64,000 nucleotides of DNA from Enterobacteria phage vB_EcoM_IME340 (MH051916); one strand, 5' to 3'; numbered from the stretch's first letter, positions 33,284 to 42,517 are shown. The notes: generated from the sequence alone by a model not told the origin. Numbers and translations: made by a program.

Positions 33284-33312
33284 TTTACACGGGGTTTTAG
33301 TTGTGATACTAT
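33284..33312 (+). promoter_or_regulatory. T4 early promoter (-35 tttaca, 17 bp spacer, -10 tactat)
   Basis: Conserved early-promoter cassette followed by tatcaaaac leader and ggagaataaaATG. Confidence 0.6.
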
Positions 33313-33348
33313 TACCCTATCAAAACAAATGAGTGATTGGAGAATAAA

Positions 33349-33621
33349 ATGAAAACATTTAAAGAATTTATCAATGAAGCTACTTTTAACGAAAAAGTAA
33401 AAATTAGCAAAGCTGTCAAGACTTTGATTGCTGACATCAATTACCTATATGATATTGATTTAACTGACTATGTAACAGTTGGTAACAAACGTAACTTTTT
33501 CGTGTTTGACATCTCTGAACTTGACCAGAATCAAATTAACAACATTGAGCGTTTTGCTAATGATAAGGGTCTTCGTCATGAGTCAGCGGGTTATAAAAAA
33601 TACGCAATTTATTTAAAATGA
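33349..33621 (+). CDS. ipI: Internal protein (ipI position) with capsid-targeting sequence
   Basis: 90 aa from ATG with GGAG SD (track begins at upstream TTG); N-terminus MKTFKEFINEA is a capsid-targeting sequence (T4 internal proteins begin MKTYQEFIAEA by recollection); first gene after 57B as T4 ipI. Confidence 0.75.
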   Translation: MKTFKEFINEATFNEKVKISKAVKTLIADINYLYDIDLTDYVTVGNKRNFFVFDISELDQNQINNIERFANDKGLRHESAGYKKYAIYLK

Positions 33622-33651
33622 GTTTACTTTTAAATAGGGTTGTGGTACTAT
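33622..33651 (+). promoter_or_regulatory. T4 early promoter (-35 gtttac, -10 tactat)
   Basis: gtttac, 18 bp spacer, tggtactat. Confidence 0.6.
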
Positions 33652-33681
33652 TATCTCATCAAAATTAATTAGGAAAATAAA

Positions 33682-33990
33682 ATGAAAACATTTAAAGAAT
33701 TTATCAATGAAGCGGCTGCACCAAAGACATTCGTTATTAATACTCAAGCGAGTCTTGATGATGAGTACGCGGAGGCAATTCTGAGGTCACTTGCTAAGAA
33801 CGGCGTTGAAGTAATCGCCTCGGACTTTAAGAAAGGGGCTTCCGAGATGTTTATTTCTATAACTAAAGGATCTAAAGCTAAAATCAAATCATCATTCGGT
33901 GTTGCTCGTACCGATCAAATCGACAATCATGACTTTAAACAAACTGGTGTTAAACGGCAGAACATAATTGCATCACGCGGAATAAAATAG
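33682..33990 (+). CDS. Internal-protein-like protein with capsid-targeting sequence
   Basis: 102 aa, N-terminus MKTFKEFINEAAA (capsid-targeting sequence). Confidence 0.72.
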   Translation: MKTFKEFINEAAAPKTFVINTQASLDDEYAEAILRSLAKNGVEVIASDFKKGASEMFISITKGSKAKIKSSFGVARTDQIDNHDFKQTGVKRQNIIASRGIK

Positions 33991-34000
33991 TTTATAAACC

Positions 34001-34030
34001 GTTTACTTTTAGATGGGGTAGTGATATTAT
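34001..34030 (+). promoter_or_regulatory. T4 early promoter (-35 gtttac, -10 tattat)
   Basis: gtttac, 18 bp spacer, gtgatattat, then ggagaataaaATG. Confidence 0.55.
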
Positions 34031-34058
34031 TACCCTATCAACTACTGAGGAGAATAAA

Positions 34059-34241
34059 ATGAAACGTTGTGAATTAATTCGAAATGTTGCTATTGCAATT
34101 TCTGCTTCCGCTTTTAGTTTTTCAATGTTTGTTGGATTTATATGCGGATTATTAACTACAGCAGAAAATGTGTTTTCACTTGTAGTAGCATTTTTAATTG
34201 GTTTAATTGCTATCGTTATGGATAAAATTTCTAAAGGTTAA
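34059..34241 (+). CDS. Small membrane protein
   Basis: 60 aa, two hydrophobic helices; GGAG SD; downstream of early promoter. Confidence 0.55.
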   Translation: MKRCELIRNVAIAISASAFSFSMFVGFICGLLTTAENVFSLVVAFLIGLIAIVMDKISKG

Positions 34242-34243
34242 TA

Positions 34244-34531
34244 ATGATTCTTTATGCTAAAGTATCATCCATTGAAAATGGATATAAATATGATCAAGAA
34301 GCAACTAAAGCCTTGATTGATGATTATGGCATTTTAACGTGTTTTGAAGTTGAAAAGGTTTACATTGACCGTTCATCTTCTCAGGTTAAATTAGTTAAGG
34401 AAGACCGTAAATTTAATACAGTAAATTTTGATTTCTTTATTGAAACAGAAAAAGGTCCTCTTGAATATGATATTTTCAAGAATCCTTTGGGTCTTGAATG
34501 CATCGTAAACATGTATTATCATAAATGGTAA
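34244..34531 (+). CDS. Hypothetical protein
   Basis: 95 aa ORF tightly coupled to the preceding ORF. Confidence 0.5.
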   Translation: MILYAKVSSIENGYKYDQEATKALIDDYGILTCFEVEKVYIDRSSSQVKLVKEDRKFNTVNFDFFIETEKGPLEYDIFKNPLGLECIVNMYYHKW

Positions 34532-34628
34532 ATATGCTTTAAGAATTATTTGTTATTATTAACTCATATCGCACTGATTAATACCCTCTATCATCAAGGG
34601 TTCTTGCTTGAGAGCCTTTGTTAATAAT

Positions 34629-34701
34629 TGGGAATTAGCCAAGTTGGTAAGGCACTGGATTTTGATTCCAGGATGCAAAGGTTCGAGTCCTTTATTCCCA
34701 G
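34629..34701 (+). tRNA. tRNA-Gln (anticodon UUG)
   Basis: Cloverleaf folded by hand: acceptor tgggaat/attccca, anticodon loop ttTTGat, T-arm aaagg-ttcgagt-ccttt. Confidence 0.85.
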
Positions 34702-40527: not shown

Positions 40528-40795
40528 TGAATTTTTATCAGAATCTATTCTTAACGAAGCTACTGACACATTTGCAACTAAGCTAGGTGCAGCTTTGGTT
40601 GAAGCTGAAAGTCTATTAGCACGTATTTCTGAACTTGCTAGTAAGATAGATACTCGCAAATTTGAACGTACCAGCGATATCGTTAAGCTTGAAGCCTTGT
40701 TGCGTATGTGCGATAAACCAGAAGAAATCGCTAAGAACGGCTCGCTAATGAAACAACGTCTTGAAAAATATATTTCAGGCGCTTCAGAAAAATAG
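40514..40795 (+). CDS. Internal-protein-like protein with capsid-targeting sequence
   Basis: 93 aa; N-terminus [16 protein letters not shown]. Confidence 0.7.
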
Positions 40796-40796
40796 T

Positions 40797-40826
40797 GTTT
40801 ACTTCCTCCAAGGACTTTGATACTAT
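40797..40826 (+). promoter_or_regulatory. T4 early promoter (gtttac / tactat)
   Basis: gtttac, 18 bp spacer, tgatactatacattcatcaacta. Confidence 0.6.
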
Positions 40827-40853
40827 ACATTCATCAACTACTTGGAGGAAATT

Positions 40854-41267
40854 ATGACTCGTATCAATTTAACACTTGTTTCTGAACTGACCGACCAACA
40901 TCTTATGGCTGAGTATCGTGAATTACCACGCGTATTTGGTGCAGTCCGTAAACATGTTCAAAACGGTAAACGTGTAAAGGATTTTAAAATCTCTCCAACA
41001 TTTATCTTAGGCACAGGTCACGTAACATTCTTTTATGACAAACTCGAATTTTTACGTTTACGTCAAATCGAGCTAATCGCTGAATGCTTGAAACGTGGTT
41101 TCAAAATCAAGGACACGACTGTCCAGGATATTTCCGACATCCCTGTCGAATTTCGTAATAATTATGTCCCGTCCGAAGCGTCCATTGCGATAAGTCAAGC
41201 TCGCTTAGATGAAAAAATTGCTCAACGCCCTACTTGGTACAAATACTATGGTAAATCAATTTACTAA
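40854..41267 (+). CDS. denV: Endonuclease V (pyrimidine dimer glycosylase) DenV
   Basis: ATG at [31 protein letters not shown], matching recalled T4 endo V; the track ORF began 4 codons upstream. Confidence 0.93.
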
Positions 41268-41273
41268 GGAAAA

Positions 41274-41534
41274 ATGAAAATGTATCAAGAATTTATCGCT
41301 GAAGCAGATGCCAAAGGCCCCAAATTTAAAGTTAAAGCTTTCGTTGGTGATGCCGAAGATTTTGGCTCATTAAAACGTAATGGGTATTTTTTCTTAGGTG
41401 GTGATGGTAAAGAAATCAACACCTATGCAAAACGTAGTGAAATTGCTTATGTTGCTGCAAGTCCTAAAGTAGATGTTGACGATATTGGATACGATTTTAA
41501 CAACTTCGGAATTATTTCTGGCGGTGAAGCTTAA
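41274..41534 (+). CDS. Internal-protein-like protein with capsid-targeting sequence
   Basis: 86 aa; N-terminus MKMYQEFIAEA. Confidence 0.7.
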   Translation: MKMYQEFIAEADAKGPKFKVKAFVGDAEDFGSLKRNGYFFLGGDGKEINTYAKRSEIAYVAASPKVDVDDIGYDFNNFGIISGGEA

Positions 41535-41537
41535 ACG

Positions 41538-41568
41538 GTTTACGCTTAAGTATTAATATGGTATAATT
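41538..41568 (+). promoter_or_regulatory. T4 early promoter (gtttac / tataat)
   Basis: gtttac, ~19 bp spacer, ggtataattactctatcaaaac. Confidence 0.55.
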
Positions 41569-41597
41569 ACTCTATCAAAACAAACAAGGAAACAAAA

Positions 41598-41912
41598 ATG
41601 AAAACATATAAAGAATTTATTGCAGAATCCGCCAACCAACGCGTTGAAGGTGGTTATATTTGGATTGAACAAGTTGAGCCACCGAGCCGCACTTCTACAG
41701 GTAAATGGAAAATTACTGTTGATGGTCCTGGTGGTAAACGTAGGACTCTTAAAGAAATTAATGGGTACTATGAAGAAGCTCTTTCGGATGCAGGAACTTA
41801 CATGATGCAAATCATGATTAAAAACCCTGAAAACCGTTTTGCAGCTAAAGTCTTCCGACGCATCGGTAATAAACTTTATGACGCATACTCTAAAAACTTC
41901 CCTAAAGAATAA
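41598..41912 (+). CDS. Internal protein, ipII-like size
   Basis: 104 aa; N-terminus MKTYKEFIAESA (capsid-targeting sequence). Confidence 0.72.
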   Translation: MKTYKEFIAESANQRVEGGYIWIEQVEPPSRTSTGKWKITVDGPGGKRRTLKEINGYYEEALSDAGTYMMQIMIKNPENRFAAKVFRRIGNKLYDAYSKNFPKE

Positions 41913-41938
41913 CATGAATTAAAACAATAGGAACAAAA

Positions 41939-42517
41939 ATGAAAACGTATCAAGAATTTATTGCTGAAGCTTCTGTAGTAAAGGCCAAAGGCATTAATAA
42001 GGACGAGTGGAACTATCGTGGTGGAAACGGCTTTGACCCTAAAACAGCCCCTATTGAACGATACTTAGCTACAAAAGCTTCCGATTTTAAAGCTTTCGCT
42101 TGGGAAGGACTTCGCTGGCGTACCGATTTAAATATTGAAGTTGACGGACTTAAATTTGCTCATATTGAAGATGTTGTTGCTAGTAACTTAGACGCAGCTT
42201 TTGTTAAAGCCGACAGTGATCTTCGTCGCTGGAATTTAAAACTGTTCTCTAAACAAAAAGGCCCGAAGTTTGTGCCTAAAGCCGGTAAATGGGTCATTGA
42301 TAATAAATTAGCTAAGGCTGTCAACTACGCTGGTCTTGAATTCGCCAAGCACAAATCATCATGGAAAGGTCTTGATGCAATGGCTTTCCGTAAAGAATTT
42401 GCCGATGTTATGGCTAAAGGCGGCTTTAAGGCAGAAATAGATACCTCTAAAGGTACGTTTAAGGACGCTAATGTTCAGTACGCTTACGCCGTTGCTAATG
42501 CAGCCCGTGGTAATTAA
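41939..42517 (+). CDS. Internal protein, ipIII-like size
   Basis: 192 aa; N-terminus MKTYQEFIAEAS, identical over the first 11 residues to the capsid-targeting sequence recalled for T4 internal proteins. Confidence 0.75.
   Translation: MKTYQEFIAEASVVKAKGINKDEWNYRGGNGFDPKTAPIERYLATKASDFKAFAWEGLRWRTDLNIEVDGLKFAHIEDVVASNLDAAFVKADSDLRRWNLKLFSKQKGPKFVPKAGKWVIDNKLAKAVNYAGLEFAKHKSSWKGLDAMAFRKEFADVMAKGGFKAEIDTSKGTFKDANVQYAYAVANAARGN

Follow-up and report, generated by a model that had tools for sequence, protein, structure and literature searches.

Seven genes with a T4-type capsid-targeting sequence in Enterobacteria phage vB_EcoM_IME340: a cassette-borne set of probable injected anti-defence proteins

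The DNA analyzed here, a window of 64,000 nucleotides (nt) of Enterobacteria phage vB_EcoM_IME340 (MH051916), carries between positions 33,284 and 42,517 seven open reading frames (ORFs) whose products begin with the N-terminal capsid-targeting sequence (CTS, or tag) of the internal proteins (Ips) of phage T4. The ORFs are referred to by their start positions or by their Ip family, and are compiled with their neighboring features in Table 1. An earlier reading of the same DNA, hereafter the original prediction, had described them as an expanded set of internal-protein genes, consistent with an injected anti-defence role, starting at 33349, 33682, 36248, 40514, 41274, 41598, and 41939. All seven starts were found on the plus strand, and the ORF check returned the claimed lengths of 86–192 amino acids (aa).

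The N-terminus MKT[YF], which had been ascribed to all seven products, is present in six. The strict motif MKT[YF].EF[ILVM].E[AS] is shared by 33349, 33682, 36248, 40514, 41598, and 41939, and the sole error in the earlier motif description concerns 41274, in which Met replaces Thr at tag position 3 (MKMYQEFIAEA). Met at this position recurs within the 41274 family, and among 173 tagged ORFs of other T4-like contigs, 14 have Met, Ser or Asn there.

On the DNA level, the pattern ATGAAAAYNTWYNNNGARTTYHTNNNNGAR yields seven matches on both strands of the 64 kb, which are exactly the seven CTS sites; 100 dinucleotide-preserving shuffles gave 0 matches, and 0 are expected. Looser protein patterns, applied to all six frames of the window, revealed no eighth copy. 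A seven-copy direct-repeat family (D1-D4) spans the ribosome-binding site together with codons 1-11, and the mean pairwise DNA identity among the seven amounts to 76% in the 33-nt CTS versus 38% over the 33 nt upstream and 33% over the 33 nt downstream. Changes at the experimentally critical CTS positions 1, 2, 4, 6, 7, 8, and 10 are limited to Y/F and I/L; variation resides mainly at positions 3, 5, 9, and 11, and part of the codon changes is synonymous. The shared 5' module reaches beyond the ip genes: trna.4 (34049-34092) and nudE (39538-39559) show the same ribosome-binding site and opening codons (GGAGAATAAAATGAAA..., MKT...) as these, without the tag (families D1 and D8).

According to a review of the T4 system (PMC9026906), residues 1-10 of IPIII are enough to carry foreign proteins into the core of the prohead; positions 4 and 7 matter for targeting, and positions 8 and 10 for processing by the protease gp21, whose cut follows the Glu of L/I-x-E. 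Each head receives, by the same account, about 300 copies of every Ip, and these are ejected into the host. In all seven window proteins, position 4 is Y or F and position 7 is F, while the processing positions 8 and 10 hold I/L and E, respectively. The cleavage contexts (slash: predicted cut) are FINE/A and FIAE/A, twice each, and FLTE/A, FLSE/S, and FIAE/S, each with a small residue after the Glu. Along this line, [LIVMF]xE is found at positions 8-10 in 163 of the 173 tagged ORFs mentioned above.

The cognate protease and the scaffolding core genes reside in the same genome. The gp21 gene lies on the minus strand at the coordinates of the original prediction, and is flanked by gp22, the gp68 ORF, gp67, and gp23. 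Because all seven proteins keep the tag residues required for targeting and processing, and the genome also encodes the protease and the core proteins, we infer that the products would be packaged, cut at E10, and injected in this phage. The predicted mature products measure 8-20 kDa; five are basic (isoelectric point, pI, 8.2-9.7), one is neutral, and one acidic.

Six of the seven, all but 36248, share 92–100% identity with named internal head or virion proteins in curated T-even records, namely RB32 Ip9 and Ip7, Ip10 of PP01 and phage Pol, RB69ORF125c, RB69ORF127c, and T4 IpIII. PHROG assigns the label 'internal head/virion protein' to five window proteins. 33349, whose ATG is preceded by a GGAG ribosome-binding site, is 94% identical to RB32 Ip9 and matches phrog_7673 ('internal head protein', E=1e-54). 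33682 reaches 97% to RB32 Ip7 and 96% to T2 ip7, in a family represented in 282 phage records of Escherichia, Klebsiella, and Enterobacter phages. 41598 is 96% identical to PP01 ip10 and clusters with 'Ip10 [phage Pol]' and RB69ORF124c; its homologue search returned relatives at 53–97% identity alone. 41939 matches T4 IpIII over its full length with 95% identity (phrog_5341, E=2e-117), and 41274 the RB69 'internal head protein' NP_861815 with 92% (family in 215 phage records). A relationship of 41274 to Ip7, indicated by a weak match to phrog_2667, was considered and rejected: neither BLASTP nor body-only hhalign gave support, and the match is hence attributed to the shared tag. The public vB_EcoM_IME340 entries contain the seven exact proteins (AWD91794, 795, 799, 810, 811, 812), several of them already labeled as internal head or virion proteins.

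40514 shares its 90%-identity cluster with RB69ORF127c, labeled 'internal head protein', and is 48% identical to the Ip5 of RB32 and RB14; the e-adjacent gene of VR20 at the same position is named ip5. Two candidate gp21 sites are present, after E10 (FLSE/S) and after E15 (LNE/A, positions 13-15). As relatives devoid of E10 retain the LNE/A site, cleavage of this protein at E15 is likely. Gene e, at its 3' end, and 40514, at its start, have 14 nt in common, and translation of both genes may be coupled via this overlap. The last e codons and the stop fall within the tag-coding start of 40514 (40500-40530), and the gene e product ends in ...WKAYIYENI* here versus ...DAYKNL* in T4; the cassette junction has rewritten the lysozyme C-terminus.

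Behind their tags, the seven bodies are unrelated to each other, as originally stated: BLASTP found no matches among them, and the maximum hhalign probability between body-only family profiles was 4.6%. Against Pfam and NCBIfam, the seven had sub-threshold matches only (CsgH for Ip10, E=0.07; cytochrome b562 for 36248), PDB sequence searches with IpIII and 36248 gave no match, and homologue searches of 36248 and Ip10 showed no sign of an untagged cellular ancestor. Structure prediction, which had been proposed for each mature body, delivered a good model of Ip10 with no informative structural neighbor and, for 36248, an all-helical AF2 model of low confidence (pLDDT 61).

36248 stands apart in its annotation. 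It carries a complete CTS and L-x-E site, while its family occurs in at least 163 phage records of which all those listed are annotated 'hypothetical'. Its protein cluster has 151 members; the 15 named ones listed are hypothetical or uncharacterized, with one stray 'isopenicillin N synthase-like dioxygenase' label among them, and none is called 'internal protein'. The protein matches phrog_2280, labeled 'unknown function', its homologue search returned near-identical sequences only, and it is 98% identical to bas37_0243 of phage Bas37. In that phage, bas37_0244 (157 aa) adjoins bas37_0243 and starts with MKSYTQFLNEAVLNEA, a degenerate tag (MKSYTQFLNEA) with Gln at position 6; its length and position equal those of RB32ORF133c, whose record notes flanking 34-bp repeats.

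The gene is located on a self-contained cassette in the rnaC-e.8 spacer. The alignment to T4 covers window positions 35928-36160, stops at 36160, and restarts at 36820; terminator-like hairpins lie at 36130-36153 and 36820-36838. Both junctions fall just after terminator T-runs, ending GGGGCTTTTT and GGGCTTTTT, and the cassette therefore carries its own terminator. In Bas37, bas37_0244 with its degenerate tag occupies this site too, which suggests rnaC-e.8 as a third cassette hotspot.

The first part of the region reads 1, 57A, 57B, Ip9, Ip7, trna.4, trna.2, ten tRNA genes, an RB69ORF150c-like ORF, rnaD, rnaC, and 36248; the second part continues with e.8 ... e.3, nudE, e, the Ip5-type gene, denV, the ORF125c-type gene, Ip10, IpIII, and vs.8. 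Six of the seven genes map to the two classical hypervariable loci, 57B-trna.4 and e-vs.8, the first of which holds ipI alone in T4. Around e and denV, the order differs from that of T4, as the original prediction had stated: e-ipIII-ipII-denV in T4 versus e-ip5type-denV-ORF125c type-ip10-ipIII here. RB69 (Mosigvirus) has the same module, e-ORF127c-denV-ORF125c-ORF124c, with the same genes in the same order, and a block of 1441 bp (40500-41940) shows 97.2% DNA identity to RB69 and 98.7% to W143 (Tequatrovirus), whose second-site layout equals that of the window. Therefore, the seemingly unusual order represents a known module in a mosaic genome. In contrast to RB69, the backbone here is that of a Tequatrovirus, and a T4-type IpIII comes after the module instead of RB69ORF123c. 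The comparison points to a recent exchange of the whole Ip5-type-denV-ORF125c-Ip10 module between genera. VR20 (Gaprivervirus) shows a related layout, e-ip5-denV-ip10-ip-ip7.

Within the phage collection searched, the best DNA match of the window is vB_EcoM_G4498 (96%). Downstream of IpIII (42518-42646), the window goes directly into the vs.8 upstream region, whereas W143 (Ip2) and G4498 (Ip4) have an additional cassette of 520-565 bp between IpIII and vs.8. The IpIII/vs.8 junction is cleanly polymorphic for the presence or absence of an ip cassette.

The promoter units of Table 1 belong to the repeat families D6, D7, and D10. T4 ipI, ipII, ipIII, and denV are preceded by the same GTTTAC units and have no TATAAATA late promoter. 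An exact pair of the latter lies upstream of e, as it does in T4, and these two promoters probably drive the overlapping 40514 as well.

Table 1. Tagged genes, the 36248 cassette, transcription signals, and prohead core genes of the window, with one ORF of phage Bas37 for comparison
Feature	Position	Strand	Description
Ip9	33349..33621	+	90 aa; propeptide MKTFKEFINE; mature 80 aa, pI 8.2
Ip7	33682..33990	+	102 aa; propeptide MKTFKEFINE; mature 92 aa, pI 9.7
CTS protein, RB14ORF136 / PP01_137 / bas37_0243 type	36248..36811	+	187 aa; propeptide MKTYAEFLTE; mature 177 aa, pI 9.5
Ip5-type internal protein (RB69ORF127c type)	40514..40795	+	93 aa
RB69ORF125c-type internal head protein	41274..41534	+	86 aa; propeptide MKMYQEFIAE; mature 76 aa, acidic, pI 4.9
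Ip10	41598..41912	+	104 aa; propeptide MKTYKEFIAE; mature 94 aa, pI 9.6
IpIII / Ip3	41939..42517	+	192 aa; propeptide MKTYQEFIAE; mature 182 aa, pI 9.65
Self-contained cassette around 36248	36155..36843	+	about 690-bp insertion versus T4, rnaC-e.8 spacer
T4 early-type promoter (TTTACA-17-TG-TACTAT)	33284..33312	+	upstream of Ip9
GTTTAC...TGnTAnnAT unit	33622-33655	+	before Ip7
GTTTAC...TGnTAnnAT unit	34002-34030	+	before trna.4
GTTTAC...TGnTAnnAT unit	about 40797-40830	+	before denV, then 41274
GTTTAC...TGnTAnnAT unit	41539-41567	+	before Ip10, then IpIII
Two TATAAATA late promoters	39993..40013	+	exact matches at 39993 and 40006, upstream of e
Terminator-like hairpin closing the Ip10-IpIII unit	42520..42537	+	no Ip2 or Ip4 cassette downstream
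Prohead core genes	2877..5028	-	gp22 scaffold, gp21, gp68, gp67; the CTS has its affinity to this core
gp22 scaffold	2877-3686	-	Pfam T4_CASP, E=2.6e-89
gp21 prohead serine protease	3717..4355	-	Pfam Peptidase_S77, E=1.5e-111
gp68	4355-4780	-	by position; no Pfam match
gp67	4780-5028	-	Pfam GP67, E=1.8e-42
bas37_0244	9718-10191 in the Bas37 stretch (MZ501089)	minus	degenerate-tag ORF

Three tagged ORFs are found in T4, as originally stated, and in T2; RB32 and RB14 have four each, Bas37 three to four, RB69 at least six, W143, VR20, and phiE142 seven each, and G4498 seven plus one degenerate tag, all counts covering the loci that could be read. The description of the set as expanded is accurate in comparison with T4, T2, RB32, and RB14, and does not hold against W143, VR20, phiE142, and G4498. 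The degenerate tag of G4498 (NC_054918, 2286-2510) belongs to a 74-aa ORF at the ipI locus that is annotated 'internal virion protein', starts with METYQKFIVEAK (E2, K6), and has no counterpart in the window. A sample of IMG/VR contained at least 187 unique tagged ORFs in at least 65 unrelated body clusters, at least 29 of them with two or more members; these figures are lower bounds, and the clusters rest on a pattern match that may admit false positives. The seven window proteins correspond to seven of the eleven largest of these at least 65 clusters. Individual genomes contain between 1 and 8 Ip families. A set of seven ranks high, yet published genomes reach the same number, and the cargo pool far exceeds the set of any single phage.

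The phenomenon as such is already known: the polymorphic T-even ip system is textbook matter, and no new principle is added here. 'At least 10' Ips of T-even phages are credited to Repoila et al. 1994 (EMBO J 13:4181) in PMC12373910, the system has been treated in the literature of the Black laboratory (PMC9026906), and its function was extended in 2025 (PMC12373910, bioRxiv 10.1101/2025.11.20.689424). In common with the T4 Ips, the window proteins have the N-terminal tag, the L/I-x-E gp21 site, the two loci, the GTTTAC early-type units, and an IpIII orthologue; the differences comprise six other bodies, the order around e and denV, and the lack of any Ip1 or Ip2 orthologue among the seven (BLASTP). 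With the Ip4-Ip10 of T-even phages, named as in the RB32, T2, PP01, and VR20 records, they share Ip9 (33349), Ip7 (33682), Ip10 (41598), and the Ip5 type (40514), and cassette-like replacement at fixed loci. The window differs from them in its own combination of seven and in the 36248 cassette, which stands outside that nomenclature in the records sampled.

Concerning function, each of Ip1, Ip2, and Ip3 is an inhibitor of its own GmrSD type IV enzyme and gives no cross-protection (PMC12373910), and the assignment of IPI as a GmrSD inhibitor by the original prediction matches the published Ip1 result. Published type IV inhibition by Ip1, Ip2, Ip3, and Bas37_0260 spans 2007-2025. The last of these, from phage KarlGJung (HIDEN-SEQ preprint 2025), is a CTS protein at the ipI locus that inhibits McrBC (bioRxiv 10.1101/2025.11.20.689424). 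It shares with the window proteins the tag, the ipI locus, and, at least by prediction, the logic of an injected type IV inhibitor. An identity of Bas37_0260 with Ip7 or Ip9 was rejected; it represents a separate 77-aa family with no homologue in the window, while Bas37 shares the homologue of 36248 named above.

Among the seven, 41939 alone is homologous to a validated inhibitor by BLASTP and hhalign. As T4 Ip3 blocks the two-gene GmrSD of ECOR17 (PMC12373910) and shares 95% identity with the window IpIII, the latter should neutralize ECOR17-type GmrSD. For the other six, our best estimate is that each would inhibit a single target, either a further type IV enzyme or another early defence.

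Taken together, we consider it highly probable that the seven genes encode T4-type Ips, i.e., proteins that would be packaged, cleaved by gp21, and injected to act as anti-defence inhibitors with a single target each. The injected anti-defence role put forward by the original prediction is supported by the homology of six members, the kept tag residues, and the published Ip functions.

Several observations weigh against this interpretation. Ip4-10 gave no reproducible inhibition of five additional active GmrSD groups (Suppl. Fig. 9, PMC12373910); hence, the targets of Ip5, Ip7, Ip9, and Ip10 need not be GmrSD. By BLASTP and hhalign, the six non-IpIII bodies resemble neither Ip1, Ip2 nor Bas37_0260, and two of the seven mature bodies have a pI of 6.3 and 4.9, unlike the basic classical Ips. 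36248 lies outside the two classical ip loci at the third site, no sampled record annotates its family as Ip, and its AF2 model is poor. In the literature, we found no virion proteomics or N-terminal sequencing for vB_EcoM_IME340 or the 36248 family, and no usable virion proteomics for the other families. Finally, no exact TATAAATA is located directly upstream of any ip gene, six having none and 40514 lying behind e. We rejected this last point as evidence against packaging, because T4 ipI, ipII, and ipIII look alike in this respect.

The best surviving alternative, which we nevertheless regard as rather unlikely, accepts packaging and injection and lets the six proteins other than IpIII act beyond type IV restriction, on other defences, in an Alt-like host takeover, or on competing phages. 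The negative GmrSD panel of Ip4-10 is compatible with it, as is the lack of sequence or fold likeness of the six to Ip1, Ip2, Ip3, and Bas37_0260; moreover, Alt, another protein that enters the host from the capsid, has a part in the escape from Mokosh type I (bioRxiv 10.1101/2025.11.20.689424). Still, four out of four tagged Ips with known targets act on type IV enzymes, and the enzyme side is diverse, with 15 GmrSD groups, eight of them active against T-even phages (PMC12373910), and with McrA, Mrr, and other type IV enzymes largely outside the tests so far.

For some members, chiefly 36248 and 41274, the 5' end might be a module for recombination or translation initiation, the tag being a passenger on a cytoplasmic, unpackaged protein. 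That this 5' end is a DNA repeat including the ribosome-binding site would fit, and the untagged trna.4 and nudE do have the same ribosome-binding site and first codons; 36248, furthermore, has a different locus, its own terminators, and the 'Ip' label in no sampled record. Yet its tag, with 63–70% DNA identity to the others, retains all critical residues and L-x-E/A, which points to selection on the peptide. The Met at position 3 of 41274 has its parallels among the 14 tagged ORFs mentioned above, and a 10-residue tag that alone packages foreign proteins (PMC9026906) should package any protein bearing it, so that we judge this explanation quite improbable.

Least probable of all is a mainly structural role of the packaged proteins in the head (DNA charge neutralization, condensation, or ejection), for although most mature bodies (five of seven) are basic and classical Ips bind DNA at low salt in about 300 copies each (PMC9026906), the bodies are unrelated and two of them neutral or acidic, a content of 1 to 8 families per genome is a poor fit to a conserved structural need, and all Ips with an assigned function are specific type IV restriction inhibitors.

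A further step can be taken tentatively, at somewhat less than an even chance: 36248 could be a genuine, unrecognized internal protein at a third ip cassette site, the tag could mark an open-ended cargo set that is exchanged between genera, and some of this cargo could act beyond GmrSD and McrBC.

The proposed course of events is as follows. The N-terminal tag of about 10 residues would bind the gp22/gp67/gp68 core, by which the protein would be built into the prohead. gp21 would then cut after the Glu of L/I-x-E (E10, and likely E15 for the Ip5-type protein), leaving the mature body of 8-20 kDa in the head. When the phage next infects a cell, the bodies would leave the head together with the DNA, act before phage gene expression, and inhibit, with one target each, host enzymes that attack the modified phage DNA. 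IpIII would be directed against the ECOR17-type two-gene GmrSD, and the other six probably against other type IV variants or early defences. On the DNA level, the shared promoter, ribosome-binding site, and tag-coding 5' end would permit swapping of cassettes by recombination, also between genera, and this swapping would account for the RB69-type e-ip5-denV-ip-ip10 block and for the rnaC-e.8 cassette.

Injected Ips are the first phage molecules to face host immunity, and all those with a known target disable the restriction of modified T-even DNA; therefore, they help to set the host range. This role is of relevance for phage therapy with T4-like phages, and finding out what the six proteins other than IpIII act on would add to the map of phage inhibitors and their matching type IV enzymes.

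A comparable strategy exists in phage P1, whose Dar anti-restriction proteins are packaged in the capsid, delivered with the DNA, and act on type I restriction. The ejection proteins of phiKZ and SPN3US are likewise packaged in the capsid and delivered with the DNA, and their propeptides are cut after Glu by a gp21-like protease (PMC9026906). All three systems differ from the window Ips in their targeting signals and much larger proteins, and show no sequence relation to them.

Two further features of the region were noted between the two classical loci. Homologues of rnaD (35823-35933) and rnaC (35941-36079) are 78% and 98% identical to those of T4, respectively, and Rfam gave nothing at gathering threshold over this region. 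The T4 tRNA cluster consists of eight genes and is interrupted by segB; without segB, the window has an uninterrupted cluster of ten (Gln, Leu, Gly, Pro, Ser, Thr, Met/Ile-CAT, Tyr, Asn, and Arg) at 34629-35456.

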